A stretch of DNA of 28,401 nt from a virus (lineage: Duplodnaviria; Caudoviricetes): positions 1-28,401 of the IMG/VR virus record IMGVR_UViG_3300014202_000755. One strand, given 5' to 3'. This document shows, in pieces, positions 16,691 to 25,419 of this stretch (position 1 is the first letter of the stretch; each line of letters starts with the position of its first letter). The translations under genes were made by a program, and so were the position numbers. A model generated the notes under the pieces. The model was not told the DNA's origin and did not search any database. It worked only from the letters and a program-made list of their open reading frames with translations.

Positions 16691-17185
16691 TTAGCTGTTG
16701 AGGGAGACAGCCTTGACGGCCGTCAGGTAGTCGGTCTTGTGCTGCGCCTGGTGCGCCAGCGCCTTGCGGTGCGTCGCGGCCGAGGCGCCGTCGACGGAGT
16801 AGCCCACCGGCGCGGCGAATTCGGCCGTGGCGGCAGTGCCGGCGCCGGCGCGCGCCTTGGTGGCGGCCTCGGCGAACTCGACCTGCACGGGCAGCGCGGC
16901 GAGGAGTTCCTTGAAGGCCTCGGCGATCGGTTTCTTCGCGTCGCCCTCGCCGAACTCGACCGGCGCGTCGGCGAGCGCATCGAGCGCGGCGACGGCCACG
17001 CCCTGCTGGGCAGGAGTGAGGCGGCCGGCGGCGACCTGCGTCTCGGCGAACGAGGCGTGGGCGGCGTGGCGGGCGGTGGCGGCGGCCGCTCGCTTTTCAC
17101 TTTCGGTGCGGGCGGCGCCATCGGCGAGTTGCTGCTTGAGCTGGGCGTTCTCGGCCTCCAGCGCGGCCTTCTGTTCAGGGGTCAC
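16691..17185 (-). CDS. Nested in-frame scaffold protein (Mu gpZ-like), 164 aa
   Basis: Perfect AAGGAGG SD ahead of an in-frame GTG at 17185 (VTPEQKAALEAENAQL), at the protease/coiled-coil boundary. Confidence 0.75.
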   Translation of the reverse strand: MTPEQKAALEAENAQLKQQLADGAARTESEKRAAAATARHAAHASFAETQVAAGRLTPAQQGVAVAALDALADAPVEFGEGDAKKPIAEAFKELLAALPVQVEFAEAATKARAGAGTAATAEFAAPVGYSVDGASAATHRKALAHQAQHKTDYLTAVKAVSLNS

Positions 17186-17809
17186 TGCGGCCTCCTTGGT
17201 GAGGGGTGGTTCGGAAAAAGCGGAAATCGGCGCGGCGTCGGCGCGGGCGGCGTCTTCGAGCGTGCCGATGGAGTAGTCGGGGATGACGGTGTCGGCCTTC
17301 TCCAGGCCGAACTGCGCGATGAGGAAGTCGCGCATGCGCCGCCACAGGCCGGCGTTCTGCTGCGCGGCCCAGTCGGCGAACTCGACGACGCCCTCCTCGT
17401 CGGCGGCGAACTCGGGCGAGCGCAGGCCCTTCACGGCCGGCGGCACGGCGCCGAGGAAGCCGATATGGCGCAGGTACCACACGCCGGGCACCGGGTTCTG
17501 TGGCGAAGTCGGCGAAAAGAAGCTGGCGGAAACCTTCTTGAAGCGGCCGGCGGCGACCATTTCGCCGAAGGCCGGCTCGACCTGGTGCGGGGACGCCTCC
17601 AGGGCGCCAGCGAAGGCAAGCGACTTCGCCCAGCCGTAGGCCGGGGCATCGAGCTTCGGGTGGCCGACGACGATGGGCGCCTCGTGTTTCGAGGGGTCGT
17701 AGGCGGCTGCGCAGGCGGCGAGATCGGCCTCGGTGAAGTCGAGCACGTCGCCGCTCATGGCGACGTGCCGGCCGGGCCGGAAAATCTGGATCGGTTTCGG
17801 ATCGTTCAT
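16691..17809 (-). CDS. Prohead protease/scaffold (Mu gpI-like)
   Basis: IQIFRPGRH...YDPSKHEAPIVVGHP...PAYGW...FKKVSASF...YLRHIGFLGAVPPAVKGL followed by a helical C-terminus. Start placed at 17809 from promoter spacing. Confidence 0.92.
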   Translation of the reverse strand: MNDPKPIQIFRPGRHVAMSGDVLDFTEADLAACAAAYDPSKHEAPIVVGHPKLDAPAYGWAKSLAFAGALEASPHQVEPAFGEMVAAGRFKKVSASFFSPTSPQNPVPGVWYLRHIGFLGAVPPAVKGLRSPEFAADEEGVVEFADWAAQQNAGLWRRMRDFLIAQFGLEKADTVIPDYSIGTLEDAARADAAPISAFSEPPLTKEAAVTPEQKAALEAENAQLKQQLADGAARTESEKRAAAATARHAAHASFAETQVAAGRLTPAQQGVAVAALDALADAPVEFGEGDAKKPIAEAFKELLAALPVQVEFAEAATKARAGAGTAATAEFAAPVGYSVDGASAATHRKALAHQAQHKTDYLTAVKAVSLNS

Positions 17810-17816
17810 GCCCGGC

Positions 17817-17865
17817 ATGCTGCCGGGCGCGCGCGACCCGCGTCAGGGGGACGTGGGTCGGGGGT
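17817..17865 (-). promoter_or_regulatory. Late promoter copy 2 (head operon, PI equivalent)
   Basis: ACCCCCGACCCacgTCCCCCTG-N21-CAGCAT-N7-ATG. Confidence 0.85.
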
Positions 17866-18573
17866 CTAGCGGAGAGCGGACTTGCCGAGGTTTTCTGGCA
17901 GCAGCAGGGCGCCACGCGGCACGAACGCCGCCGCTGATGTAGCCCGCTCGGCAACGCGATTCATGGCGGCATTGTAATCGCTTGCCGCCTGGTCGAGCGC
18001 GGCACGCGCCGCCTTGGCCTCGGTAACCAGGTTGTCGGCAATCCCGGTCTGGATCGAGGCGGCGCCGGAGGCGCCGAGCGCGGAGACGTAGGCGGCGTCC
18101 CCGCCACGGCCGGCCGCGATCCTGTCGCGCTCAACCTCCATGACGCCGACGGAACGCTTCGCGGCGTCGGCCATACGGTTGGCGCCCGCAATGGCCGCGT
18201 TAAAAACCGCGCGGCGCCGCAGCATGTTTTGAACCTCGCGCAACGCGGTCTCGGCGGCATCGAGGTAGCCGGAGACGGCGGCCATGCGTGCTTCGTTGCG
18301 CGCCGGCTTCGCCATCCTGATTTGCAGCCTGAGCTTGCCGACCTCGGCGGCATGCCCGGCCGCCTTGGCGATCAGGTCGCCCTGCGTGATGCCCTTGTCG
18401 TCGGAGAAGTAGCCAATCGCATCGAACAGGCGCTCCGTTGCTTCGCGGGCGACCTTTTCGGCCAGCTTCGCCTCGGCGCGGTCCTCGATGTACCAGTTGC
18501 CGGCAAAAAGCAGTCCGGCCACGGCAAGGGCCGCGGGGATGAACCATTTCAGACGATCGAGCCAAGCGTTCAC
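17866..18573 (-). CDS. Accessory membrane-anchored helical protein, 235 aa
   Basis: One N-terminal hydrophobic helix (WFIPAALAVAGLLFAGNWYI) then Ala-rich coiled coil. GTG at 18573 lies 7 nt after a -10 box. Confidence 0.72.
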   Translation of the reverse strand: MNAWLDRLKWFIPAALAVAGLLFAGNWYIEDRAEAKLAEKVAREATERLFDAIGYFSDDKGITQGDLIAKAAGHAAEVGKLRLQIRMAKPARNEARMAAVSGYLDAAETALREVQNMLRRRAVFNAAIAGANRMADAAKRSVGVMEVERDRIAAGRGGDAAYVSALGASGAASIQTGIADNLVTEAKAARAALDQAASDYNAAMNRVAERATSAAAFVPRGALLLPENLGKSALR

Positions 18574-18580
18574 GGGCGGG

Positions 18581-18609
18581 ACATTACACGCCCGACGGCG
18601 ACTTGACAA
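18581..18609 (-). promoter_or_regulatory. Sigma70-type promoter TTGTCA-17-TAATGT
   Basis: -35 at 18609-18604 and -10 at 18586-18581, pointing at the membrane protein gene. Confidence 0.65.
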
Positions 18610-18631
18610 CGCCATGATGTCCGCGCAGAAT
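18603..18631 (+). promoter_or_regulatory. Sigma70-type promoter TTGACA-17-CAGAAT
   Basis: Consensus -35 at 18603-18608, 17-bp spacer, -10 at 18626-18631. Confidence 0.78.
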
Positions 18632-18684
18632 CGTCGACACTAAATCTCAGCGGAAGCCGCACCCGTCAGACACGCGGCGTCTGC

Positions 18685-18711
18685 CGCCCCATTTAGGGGC
18701 GTTTTGCTTTT
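18685..18711 (+). terminator. Leader terminator/attenuator
   Basis: CGCCCC-ATTTA-GGGGCG followed by TTTTGCTTTT, between the promoter and the cloverleaf RNA. Confidence 0.6.
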
Positions 18712-18713
18712 AA

Positions 18714-18791
18714 GGCGGGCCGAGAGCCGGGAATACAACACCCTTCGGGGAAACAACGGCCGGGCTCCTGAGAGCCCAGTTGAGGCCCGCC
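18714..18791 (+). ncRNA. c4/CI-like antisense RNA (cloverleaf)
   Basis: Closing stem GGCGGGCC/GGCCCGCC; arm GCCG..CCC-TTCG-GGG..CGGC; arm GGGCT-CCTGAG-AGCCC. CTCCTGAGA is complementary to TCTCAGGAG at 18809-18817 and partly to TCTCAG at 18645-18650. Confidence 0.75.
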
Positions 18792-18822
18792 ACCCACTAC
18801 AAACTTAATCTCAGGAGATAAC

Positions 18823-19107
18823 ATGGCTACGAATCAAAACCTCGCAACACCCGCAGCACAAGCCACGGAGAAGCCCTCGGCCGTGGAAATCCTCAACCTG
18901 CTCTCCCTGGCGCTCTCCAAGGACGTCCCATCGAGCGACCATCAAGTTCTCATCCACGCCCACGTGGCCCTGGATCAGGCCTGGCACCGCGGCTACAAGC
19001 GCGGTCGCGAAGAGGGTTATCAAGCGGGTCTGATTGCGGCCGGGCAGGCCGAGACGGTCGCCGCGCTGGTGATCGAGGGGATGTGCCGGCGCGAAGGGGG
19101 GCGGTGA
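18823..19107 (+). CDS. Hypothetical protein, 94 aa; first gene after the c4-like RNA
   Basis: AGGAGA SD; coupled to the next ORF by TGATG. Confidence 0.78.
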   Translation: MATNQNLATPAAQATEKPSAVEILNLLSLALSKDVPSSDHQVLIHAHVALDQAWHRGYKRGREEGYQAGLIAAGQAETVAALVIEGMCRREGGR

Positions 19108-19277
19108 TGAAGCCCACCACCGTCATCCGGATGCTTTCCGGCATCATCGCCCTTCTGCACGCGGCCGTGCTGGCCGCCCCGGCCCCACGGGCGACAGCGG
19201 CCGCACTAAGGGCGCTGGCCGCCGAGGCGCAGCGCGTCGCGGCGAAACTTGAAAGAATCGCCGGAGGTGCGATATGA
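19107..19277 (+). CDS. Hypothetical protein, 56 aa, hydrophobic N-terminus
   Basis: MKPTTVIRMLSGIIALLHAAVLAAP...; TGATG and ATGA overlaps on its two sides. Confidence 0.6.
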   Translation: MKPTTVIRMLSGIIALLHAAVLAAPAPRATAAALRALAAEAQRVAAKLERIAGGAI

Positions 19278-19468
19278 GCGCAACCGTCATCCCCTTCCCC
19301 GCAAAGCCTGACGTGGCCGAAGACGATCCGCGCCTTGCCCGCGTGCGCGAACTCCTCGCAGAGGCGAAACCGGCCGTCGAGCCGGAAATGCTCAAGATAT
19401 TGCGCCGCATCGACCGCCGCCTGGCGCGGCTCGGCACATTTGAAATCGGAGATCAACATGGAAAATGA
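19274..19468 (+). CDS. Hypothetical protein, 64 aa
   Basis: GGAGG SD; MSATVIPFP N-terminus of a kind common in small phage proteins. Confidence 0.7.
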   Translation: MSATVIPFPAKPDVAEDDPRLARVRELLAEAKPAVEPEMLKILRRIDRRLARLGTFEIGDQHGK

Positions 19469-19760
19469 CGAGAGCAGCAAGACGCGGCTGACGCCGCGCG
19501 AGAGGGCGGCGACCCGCCCCAAGTCGGCGCAGCTTGCCATCGCCGCGTATTGCTATCACGTGTGCATGGGCGAAGAAGCGCAGAATTCACACACAACCAA
19601 GCTCATGATCAAGGAGTGTGCGAAGACAGATTGCCCGCTTTGGCCGCACAGGGGGTGGCGAAAAATAACCGGCGGGAATGTCGGTAAAAAGCATTGGAAG
19701 CACAAGCAGCCGGATAGCCCATTAGCGCAAGGCCCAATACCCGGCGTTAAAAAGCCGTAA
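19458..19760 (+). CDS. Putative zinc-binding protein, 100 aa
   Basis: GGAGA SD and ATG at 19458; AIAAYCYHVC...ECAKTDCPLWPHR (Cx3C...Cx4C). Confidence 0.72.
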   Translation: MENDESSKTRLTPRERAATRPKSAQLAIAAYCYHVCMGEEAQNSHTTKLMIKECAKTDCPLWPHRGWRKITGGNVGKKHWKHKQPDSPLAQGPIPGVKKP

Positions 19761-19843
19761 AAAACACCGTGGCGCGGCTGTAGCGCCCCAAGGTATAGCA
19801 CGGTAGCACAAGGCTATCAAAACCCGCCCAGGAGGCCTGTAAT

Positions 19844-19879
19844 GCGGCCGGAGCCAAAAGCTCCGGCCGCTTGTTTTTT
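19844..19879 (+). terminator. Intrinsic terminator closing the + strand island operon
   Basis: GCGGCCGGAGC-CAAAA-GCTCCGGCCGC 11-bp perfect stem then TTGTTTTTT, convergent with gene G. Confidence 0.85.
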
Positions 19880-20399
19880 ACCCCCCGGCCAGGAAACCGG
19901 CCACGGTTTCGAGGATGTCGGCCTTGTCCTCGGCCGAAACACCAAGGAAGGGCCGGGCGGGGATGGCGCCCCAAGGGGCCTTGCCGAACTGGCGGGCGGC
20001 GGCGCCGAACTGCTGCACGGCGGCCTGGATGCGGTTGGAGCCGATCTGCACGGCGTTGCCGCCGGCCTGGTAGACGATCTGATTGCCGAGCAGGCGGGTG
20101 GCGCCGACGAGGGGCTTCTTGGCGCCGGCGAGCGTGGCGCCTTTCTTGCTGAGGCCGCCGCCTTTTTTGCGCGTGCCGGATCTGGCAGCGAGATACCGCG
20201 CGATGGTCACCGGGCTGTTCGGCGCCCAGGCGCTGCCGTCTGGCGCCCGGCTCGTTTCGAACCGCCGCCGGGTGCTCTCGGCCAGGCTCTCGCCGATGGC
20301 CTTGAGCGCGGGGCTCGGGCTGCCGGCGCGTCGGAGCAGGCGGGCGAGCGCCGCCTGCAGCTCGGCGTCGTCGATGCGGATCGAGAGCGGCTCCGTCAC
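19878..20399 (-). CDS. Virion morphogenesis protein (Mu gpG-like)
   Basis: GTGA-coupled start; STRRRFETSRAPDGSAWAP...AAVQQFG...IPARPFLGVS signature. Confidence 0.92.
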   Translation of the reverse strand: MTEPLSIRIDDAELQAALARLLRRAGSPSPALKAIGESLAESTRRRFETSRAPDGSAWAPNSPVTIARYLAARSGTRKKGGGLSKKGATLAGAKKPLVGATRLLGNQIVYQAGGNAVQIGSNRIQAAVQQFGAAARQFGKAPWGAIPARPFLGVSAEDKADILETVAGFLAGG

Positions 20400-21190
20400 T
20401 TGAGCACCTGTGCGGCGTAGGCGGCGAGCGCGGCGCGGATCTTCGGCGTGAGGCGCACGAGCTTCTCGCGCACGAGATCCGCCAGGCTGCGGTCGGCGCG
20501 GTCGCCGGGCATGTAGTCGAAACCCTTGTCGATGCCGGCCGGCAGGCCGGTTTTCGGGTCTTCGCCATCGTCGGGGGCCTCCTCGACGATGCGGGCGCCG
20601 AGACGCTCGGCCTGGGCGCGGCTGACGGCGATGACGCGGCATTGGCAACCCCAGCCGTTGGGCGGGTAGTGCTGCCGGAACCATTCGTGGTCGGCGGGCA
20701 GCGTGAGCCGGTTCCAGGAGACGTGCAGCGGGCGCGGGTGCAGGACGGAATCCGAGTGCTTGTACATCCAGTAGGGGCGCAGGCGCCGGAGATCCGGGTC
20801 GCGCAACTGCTTGAGCCGGCCGGCGGCATAGGACGTGGCGAGGTTGGTCATGTAGATGGTGCGCGTGCGCCAGGCGCGGCCGGCGTCGGTGTCTTCGCCG
20901 GTCCAGCCGTGCCAGCCGTGGCGTTCGACGATCTCGTCGAAGTCTTCACGGAAGCGCTCCAGGGTGGTGCCGTCGGCGATGGCGCGATCGACGGCGTCTT
21001 TCAGATCCTGCAGGAGATCCGCCTTCTGGGCGCCGGCGACGATGAAGGCGCGGTCGTGGGCAGACCGCTGAATGTCGTCCCAGCGCCCGCTGGGCAGGTT
21101 GTGTTTCCTGCGGAAGAAGTCGACCTGCTCCCGGAAAGGCAGGCGCGCGCTGGTGACGGCCTGGCCGTCCGGCGTGAGGTCAAGCGCCAC
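20396..21190 (-). CDS. Head morphogenesis protein (Mu gpF-like)
   Basis: PFREQVDFFRRK...HDRAFIVAGA...TIYMTNLATSYAAGR...YPPNGWGCQCRV. Confidence 0.93.
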   Translation of the reverse strand: MALDLTPDGQAVTSARLPFREQVDFFRRKHNLPSGRWDDIQRSAHDRAFIVAGAQKADLLQDLKDAVDRAIADGTTLERFREDFDEIVERHGWHGWTGEDTDAGRAWRTRTIYMTNLATSYAAGRLKQLRDPDLRRLRPYWMYKHSDSVLHPRPLHVSWNRLTLPADHEWFRQHYPPNGWGCQCRVIAVSRAQAERLGARIVEEAPDDGEDPKTGLPAGIDKGFDYMPGDRADRSLADLVREKLVRLTPKIRAALAAYAAQVLK

Positions 21191-25182: not shown

Positions 25183-25419
25183 TTAAAAGCTGTCCGGACG
25201 CGCGACGGATCGAACCAGCGCCATGAACCCCTTTTGCAGGTCGGTCTTGGCGATCGCGATCCACCTTGCGTCGATCTGGCCGCGATCCTTTGCAGCCTTT
25301 TCGAGCGTCTCGACCAGGGCGCCGACTTCAGCCGCCTTGTTCTTGACCTCGTTCATCAGCGCGATCTCCTCTTGCGAAAGATCACGATAGCCCTTGATAT
25401 GCTTGTGCTGGTTTTCCAT
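25183..25419 (-). CDS. acb2: Anti-CBASS cyclic-nucleotide sponge Acb2 homolog, 78 aa
   Basis: [23 protein letters not shown] and [27 protein letters not shown] match both conserved blocks of Acb2 as I recall them; GAGGA SD. Confidence 0.9.

Follow-up and report, generated by a model that had tools for sequence, protein, structure and literature searches.

A candidate c4-like RNA switch of the sRNA-Xcc1 type ahead of a four-gene operon in the head region of a Mu-like phage

The C4 RNA of phage P1 and the CI RNA of phage P4 are leader RNAs that are processed by RNase P. A further small RNA family, sRNA-Xcc1 (Rfam RF02221), has been studied in Xanthomonas, where one member is a discrete RNA of 88 nt (Jiang et al., 2010, PMC2996969); it was published as trans-acting and virulence-linked on the basis of target predictions and control by HrpG/HrpX (PMC2996969, PMC12189769), and one sRNA-Xcc1 located upstream of an ORF6N gene was likewise interpreted as virulence-related (PMC7313666). 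A literature search that reached few subscription journals, and not Chen et al. (2011), found no paper on sRNA-Xcc1 acting on its own transcript and none on a cassette of the present kind in Mu-like phages; the accessible text of PMC10884400 and PMC13551039 contains nothing on RNA control of such operons. The cassette analysed here occupies positions 18603–19879 of the virus record IMGVR_UViG_3300014202_000755 (Duplodnaviria; Caudoviricetes), the whole 28,401-nt stretch of which is referred to as the window, and it consists of a leader with a structured RNA followed by four small open reading frames (ORF1–ORF4). To judge from its sequence and that of its relatives, the leader RNA is very probably a c4-like self-silencing switch built on an sRNA-Xcc1 scaffold, and the joint reading, in which such a switch is combined with a cargo acting as in antirepressor operons, is given a probability of roughly 0.6.

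The leader contains the following elements, all on the + strand, which were compared with sibling cassettes (loci designated L plus a number) found in searches that took the cargo proteins and a single leader pattern as queries.

18603–18631, +: sigma-70-type promoter (TTGACA-17-CAGAAT); a similar promoter is aligned in siblings L229 and L203
18639–18653, +: upstream copy of the target (b1-a1), which extends into the leader hairpin at its base; an 11/12-nt repeat of 18803–18814
18650–18684, +: leader hairpin with a conserved ACCCG loop (predicted fold), positioned as a c4-a1b1/seqA/IsrK-type leader
18685–18711, +: intrinsic terminator of the leader, likely leaky; kept in siblings
18714–18791, +: sRNA-Xcc1-type structured RNA, spanning 78 nt from one end of its 8-bp closing stem to the other (RF02221, 48.8 bits)
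18732–18753, +: invariant family motif arm (AATACAAnACCC-loop-GGG-AA), from family motif comparison
18762–18777, +: variable antisense hairpin (a'), holding the 9-nt complement 18765–18773 (sequence, fold and sibling test)
18778–18783, +: second antisense segment (b'), with 3–4 bp of pairing left in this copy (sequence and sibling alignment)
18803–18817, +: downstream target copy (b2-a2) over the AGGAG Shine-Dalgarno (SD) sequence of ORF1 (repeat and complement to the RNA loop)
19844–19879, +: end terminator, adjoining the stop of a converging gpG-like gene (terminator call at 19844–19870)

A preliminary description made from the sequence alone had recorded a promoter, a short repeat present twice, two terminators and an arm complementary to the SD region, and each of these elements was recovered. 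The promoter is the sole promoter-like site in 18000–20500 (0.1 ± 0.4 in shuffled sequences). The repeat AATCTCAG occurs in exactly two + strand copies in the window, at 18643 and 18807, the second of which lies at the SD, and it is longer than had been described, matching at 11 of 12 nt between 18639–18650 and 18803–18814. A terminator hairpin was detected in the leader at 18685–18701, and the end terminator is strong. The stems of the leader hairpin are retained despite changed sequence in L201, L203 and L114; a "domino" anti-terminator considered for this region was dropped, because the long hairpin is what the siblings conserve. The segment CTCCTGAGA (18765–18773) is a perfect complement of 18809–18817, which covers the SD, includes AGGAG and ends 5 nt before the ATG of ORF1 at 18823; the 9-mer is unique in the window, and among 20,000 shuffled RNAs 8 had as much as 9 nt of complementarity to the SD region. 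The a arm of the window RNA can form 9 perfect base pairs with its target; the b arm retains 3–4 bp and is longer in siblings.

When viral contigs were scanned for the invariant arm, 110 loci were identified in 7 of the 64 parts of the collection; 113 motif matches, including the window, were reduced to 84 with a closing stem (29 without one were dropped), then to 75 distinct RNAs, and finally to 52 by dereplication of the variable segment at 80%. In this set, which keeps loci without visible targets and was assessed by a permutation that ignores phylogeny, the longest perfect complement of the RNA to its own downstream target averaged 7.0 nt versus 5.1 nt to foreign targets, and that to its own upstream target or leader averaged 7.1 versus 5.6 nt, values reached in 0 of 100,000 permutations in both cases; the corresponding controls, using the opposite strand and the constant arm, were null (47,653 and 96,381 of 100,000). 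A second set comprised the window and seven siblings of the same sub-scaffold, chosen by hand and anchored on conserved letters only. Here the own SD target was strictly the best for all eight RNAs and the own upstream target was the best for seven of them, each at 1 of 40,320 permutations, and in L229 a loop base differs and its partner base has changed with it in the two targets. The preliminary description had proposed a c4/CI-like, RNA-gated switch and had suggested a search for covariation between loop and target sites; both the covariation in these two sets and the anatomy of the leader support that proposal.

With respect to family, the window RNA aligns with RF02221 over the full model length (E 7e-8), at a score below the gathering cut-off of 53 bits, and it scores 55.6 bits against a model built here, R1, in which the window itself is included. 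The invariant AAUACAAnACCC/GGG arm within a closing stem of ~80–88 nt is present. Six siblings (L114, L116, L118, L203, L223 and L225) score 55.8–65.2 bits against RF02221, L229 scores 52.7 and L201 scores 50 bits. The Rfam comparison suggested earlier gave no membership in the families it named: the window RNA is not a C4 RNA (RF01695, 15.8 bits, cut-off 45), c4-2 and c4-a1b1 have no match at E ≤ 10 in 18550–18900, and the scaffold is of the sRNA-Xcc1 type instead. No Rfam family matches anywhere in the window at its gathering cut-off, and isrK has no match in the window leader; matches to UCA1, RF_site5 and Hammerhead_II were taken as chance. The cloverleaf described earlier needs correction: the predicted fold is a closing stem with two arms and not a four-armed cloverleaf.

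The RNA family as a whole points in the same direction. Among 20 chosen motif loci checked against Rfam, all 20 match RF02221, 19 with a copy above the cut-off, and 36 of 43 SD-led first ORFs behind the RNA carry a Rha, AntA, P22_AR_N, KilA-N, Bro-N or ORF6N domain. With the covariation and these gene arrangements taken together, the sRNA-Xcc1-type family behaves as a c4-like lock on antirepressor operons. RNAalifold applied to a MAFFT alignment missed the closing stem, as two subtypes are out of register, and for the same reason R1 has just 8 pairs and may miss diverged copies; an nhmmer profile missed L113. Seven loci (L001, L009, L024, L033, L044, L049 and L108) carry sRNA-Xcc1-like RNAs without an SD-led ORF behind them and without visible flanking targets, and their target may lie elsewhere; the RNA of L108 is above the Rfam cut-off. 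Tandem cassettes with different loop specificity occur in L014, L084, L100, L101 and L102, and those of L101 and L102 mix sRNA-Xcc1 with C4 or c4-2. Leader RNAs at 2940–3015 of L120 and 920–990 of L227 show a two-target logic by eye and match no Rfam model; they are likely further scaffolds of c4-like switches.

The RNA is followed by four ORFs, coupled as the preliminary description had stated, with overlaps of TGATG (19105–09), ATGA (19274–77) and 11 nt (19458–68).

18823–19107, +: ORF1 (94 aa), of no known family and predicted to be wholly helical; homologs take the first position after the RNA in L229 (39%) and L118 (30%)
19107–19277, +: ORF2 (56 aa), coupled to ORF1 and hydrophobic in its N-terminal half; L229 (64%) and L227 (66%) have homologs
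19274–19468, +: ORF3, 64 aa, with an MxxVIPF start and an EMLKxLRRIDRRL end; homologs in L204, L116, L222, L223 and L225, and a weak one in L114
19458–19760, +: ORF4, 100 aa, helical, conserved cysteines, no known family; 103 representatives at E ≤ 0.001

The four ORFs all appear genuine, because homologs have intact frames and because a variant contig differs in ORF3 at 6 sites, each of them a third codon position, with 5 of the changes silent; ORF2 in that contig has 2 silent and 2 amino-acid changes, and its homologs are found in just 2 other loci. The cargo had been said not to match ant, icd or kil, and this held in Pfam, PHROGs, NCBIfam and PADLOC; a specific counter-possibility, that the ORFs are ordinary antirepressor or icd fragments, found no match in the family searches. 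ORF1–ORF4 have weak PHROGs rows of no assigned function only (best E 0.005) and no PADLOC match, and a single NCBIfam row (FliH, 12 bits versus a cut-off of 192) was rejected as a glycine-repeat helix. The predicted model of ORF1 is of low confidence (predicted local distance difference test, pLDDT, 58.6) and too poor for a fold search. In the ORF4 family, C32, C54 and C59 are invariant in 57 rows and C36 is invariant in the closest 12, so the protein is probably zinc-binding; its helical model reaches a pLDDT of 73.9. None of the 57 rows has a Pfam match, and ORF4 itself has no sequence match in PDB and none among annotated GenBank phages, nor did Foldseek, run against PDB and BFVD, give a match at E ≤ 0.001; its best VIA Z is 3.0, with a root-mean-square deviation of 4.5 over 63 residues, which does not by itself indicate a new fold, and in the ESM Atlas it falls in unnamed, mostly viral clusters. 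Of 31 ORF4 loci, a count that includes duplicates (L112/L202, L117/L207, L208/L219 and L210–L213), 21 have the gene next to Mu head genes and 19 have it on the strand opposite to them. The ORF4 domain also occurs as a tandem two-domain protein at 2613–3275 of L223 and 1214–1861 (−) of L229.

The same RNA type was found ahead of a homolog of at least one window ORF in eight sibling loci, arranged as follows.

L229: RNA, ORF1, ORF2, doubled ORF4
L118: RNA, ORF1, ORF4
L114, L116, L223: RNA, ORF3 (weak in L114), ORF4
L225: RNA, ORF3, another gene of no known family
L201, L203: RNA, a gene with Bro-N and a helix-turn-helix (HTH), a small ORF, ORF4; leaders closest to that of the window

The first gene is of the ORF1 or ORF3 type, and not an antirepressor, in 6 of these 8 loci, a proportion biased by the use of those genes to find them. 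Homologs of all four window ORFs thus occur in RNA-led sibling cassettes, mostly in Mu-like head regions and also at other junctions (F/portal), and in L113 the slot between G and the protease contains the RNA together with a Rha gene. In L222 (2257–2731), a C4 RNA (61.4 bits, above cut-off), isrK and a sub-threshold c4-a1b1 match precede an ORF3 homolog, the stop of which overlaps the start of a Rha gene, which is the position of icd in P1; IsrK stands there in an upstream-leader role. The window cassette belongs to a family of modular operons whose members in some cases hold Bro-N or Rha in the same slot, and it is therefore a variant of antirepressor operons. Of the earlier suggestion of a new, self-contained operon, the c4/CI-like anatomy stands and the free-standing system does not. 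An HTH_3 search in five sibling records did not identify repressor targets. A Rhodocyclaceae genome holds one sibling-type locus.

On the minus strand, the window carries genes for a Mu-type portal, F, G, protease, gp36 and Mor. The cassette lies in this Mu-like head region on the strand opposite to the head genes, so the antisense insertion described earlier is borne out by the neighbouring genes (gpG-like PF05069, Mu F, Mu portal and protease).

19878–20399, −: gpG-like virion morphogenesis gene, flank (PF05069, E 1e-26)
16691–17818, −: Mu-type head maturation protease, flank (phrog_976, E 4e-127)
17866–18615, −: second accessory ORF, flank, with a hydrophobic N-terminal stretch; also in the cassette-free L122

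In the relative L122, both flanks are 84–86% identical to the window and the match ends at 18609 and restarts at 19875, so 18610–19874 is absent; in addition, the gap between G and the protease is at most 450 nt in 40 of the 49 Mu-like loci in which the two are adjacent. The cassette is accordingly taken as an accessory insert of 1.27 kb in the gpG-to-protease slot. It is not common: no copy of the RNA was found among 79 other loci picked via the protease gene, 68 of which have at least 1.5 kb of upstream sequence. L111 is a 100% identical copy of the window and not independent, and a 1,523-nt contig from run X3, which belongs to the study of a possible source sample, covers 18302–19824 with one difference. 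Among public runs no RNA run with the locus is listed, and one run guessed to be RNA is probably DNA. The second accessory ORF, missing from an earlier feature list, is a 249-aa frame with its stop at 17866, between cassette and protease; its true start is probably near 18573, it has a helical body and no family, its L122 homolog is 79% identical, and a membrane-anchored exclusion protein is a possible guess from its sequence. Upstream of their Mu protease gene, other loci carry inserts for an MqsR/MqsA pair, RES-like proteins, Rha and DUF2158, and the slot serves as a hot spot for accessory genes in general.

Other protease-upstream inserts: L189 3474–4194; L153 3582–4436; L158 3529–4437; L144 3930–4286; L173 4213–4398

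Elsewhere in the window (25183–25419, −), a 78-aa gene has an Acb2/Tad1 hairpin domain (PF24729, E 2e-19), and its product is likely an anti-defence sponge; 13 of the 79 other Mu-like loci have a homolog (45–52%) downstream of the protease.

The mechanism proposed here starts from what was observed directly, namely the anatomy of the leader, its pairing, the covariation of loop and targets, the conservation of the ORFs and the absence of the insert from a close relative. By analogy with P1 and P4, transcripts that pass the leaky leader terminator would yield the RNA, which would be released by processing; the closing stem followed by ACCC is compatible with RNase P-type release. The RNA loop would bind the SD of ORF1 and block its translation, polarity would silence the coupled ORFs, and the upstream target may serve as feedback or as a decoy. 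A newly entered genome, having no RNA, would give a burst of small proteins that is shut off as the RNA builds up; a lysogen with the same loop would silence a superinfecting copy in trans, and diverged loops would escape. The role of the cargo, read from gene position only, would most likely be to act briefly on the new cell or its resident prophages in favour of the incoming phage and to be harmful if left on.

Several observations weigh against this interpretation. One control of the energy-based comparison was marginal (4,241 of 100,000), so base composition adds to the energy signal. In equilibrium co-folding, pairing with either of its own targets brought the window RNA no net gain, and just 3 of 8 siblings gained on their own SD; this counter-evidence is weak but real, since the program cannot model loop-loop kissing. 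The variable end of the window RNA pairs better with the targets of L114, L116 and L113 (−23.3, −22.6 and −19.4 kcal/mol) than with its own (−18.8 kcal/mol), which by duplex energy ranks 12th of 52 downstream and 22nd upstream. The b arm of this copy is degenerate, and ~20 nt behind the RNA that are present in five siblings are missing, shortening the spacer. ORF4 need not be gated, because homologs exist without a detected RNA (L112/L202, L115, L117/L207, L119, L205 and L206); ORF1–ORF4 have no Pfam match at E ≤ 0.01, and no function is assignable to any of them. Leaders of this kind can also activate, as IsrK does (PMC4825925).

The cargo of the same RNA switch might instead consist of anti-defence proteins, anti-CRISPR or similar, with the RNA replacing the Aca repressor as timer. 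The insert lies in the slot between the Mu G homolog and the protease, as do acr operons of Pseudomonas Mu-like phages (PMC3993853, PMC8027618); it has a strong promoter of its own, small swappable ORFs and no HTH repressor gene, ORF4 recurs beside Mu head genes (21 of 31 loci, 19 opposite), and the same phage carries the Acb2/Tad1-domain gene. However, the ORFs match no Pfam model, the slot also takes the unrelated RES-like, DUF2158, Rha and MqsR/MqsA inserts, sibling cassettes also sit at the F/portal junction, and none of the 17 genes in second or third place after RNAs of the family matches an anti-defence Pfam; furthermore, the protease gene of DMS3 is downstream of acr-aca (PMC8027618), whereas the window cassette points away from the protease. 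It seems unlikely that betaproteobacterial Mu-like phages time an anti-defence burst by a c4-like RNA instead of Aca and that ORF1–ORF4 are four new inhibitor families. If so, the fast-changing loop would keep the RNAs of resident prophages from silencing an incoming copy, and small genes behind sRNA-Xcc1- and C4-type RNAs would become a new guilt-by-association marker for anti-defence genes.

That the cassette is a prophage type I toxin-antitoxin or abortive-infection unit, whose RNA restrains a toxic product until another phage infects or the prophage is lost, is improbable: an sRNA-Xcc1 lies upstream of the toxin gene symE in Xanthomonas integron cassettes (bioRxiv 2025.06.18.660453), Icd of P1 blocks cell division (PMC8201110), and ORF2 is short and hydrophobic, but ORF2 is not the directly targeted gene and is confined to the window and 2 other loci, the gated first gene varies among siblings (ORF1-like, ORF3-like, Bro-N or Rha), PADLOC gave no match, and ORF4 homologs stand alone without the RNA. 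Decay from an antirepressor operon that has lost its main gene would fit the degenerate b arm and shortened spacer, the closest leaders, which gate Bro-N genes, and the rarity of the RNA (0 of 79 protease-picked loci). This is very improbable, given that the antirepressor-free order RNA-ORF1-ORF2-ORF4 recurs in L229 with intact frames at 39–64% protein identity, that RNA-ORF1-ORF4 occurs in L118, that the ORF3 changes are all at third positions with 5 of 6 silent, and that the 9-bp a arm is perfect. An RNA acting mainly in trans on host mRNAs, its local pairing being incidental, would agree with the published reading of the family and the target predictions and HrpG/HrpX control behind it (PMC2996969, PMC12189769), but it is scarcely credible here, as a host-directed RNA has no need of a loop and two flanking targets that covary in 52 homologs and in the 8-RNA sibling set.

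If the c4-like switch is correct, sRNA-Xcc1, studied as a virulence-linked trans-acting RNA, would be recast as a phage-type self-silencing switch, and c4-type control would extend to Mu-like phages and to antirepressor-free operons. Four small conserved protein families, apparently tightly rationed by the phage, are defined in a known anti-CRISPR slot, so that ORF1–ORF4 could be screened at little cost for toxicity and anti-defence activity. The natural loop/target pairs may also offer a ready panel of orthogonal translational switches.

Compared with sRNA-Xcc1, the window RNA shares the length, the closing stem and the invariant AAUACAAnACCC arm, and several siblings pass the cut-off; the window copy is under it, and its loop matches targets on its own transcript, whereas the published family is trans-acting. 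The acr-aca operons of Pseudomonas Mu-like phages share small variable genes, an own promoter and the slot between the Mu G homolog and the protease (PMC3993853, PMC4378225), but the window cassette has the opposite orientation, no Aca or HTH Pfam in ORF1–ORF4 and a putative RNA-based control; no sequence or fold match between ORF1–ORF4 and known Acr proteins was found, although Acr families are too diverse for this absence to exclude them. Phage P4 CI (seqA/seqC) and Gifsy-1 IsrK have in common with the window a leader hairpin and terminator before the small RNA and sites on both sides (PMC4825925); CI acts by premature termination ahead of replication genes and IsrK by translation activation (PMC4825925). 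The immI region of P1/P7 (c4-icd-ant; RF01695, RF03163) likewise has an RNA in its own leader with targets on both sides, one over the ribosome-binding site, and its loop varies between related phages (PMC12197685, PMC8201110, PMC7313666); of its two antisense segments, the second is reduced to 3–4 bp in the window. A further link is the ORF3 homolog of L222, which has a true C4 RNA on one side and a Rha gene on the other. The window differs in its RNA scaffold, in a cargo without an Ant or Icd domain and in its location in the head region and not the immunity region. An immI-type arrangement, with an RNA in its own leader and covarying upstream and downstream targets, is present in the window, and by this analogy the cassette likely works like P1 immI.

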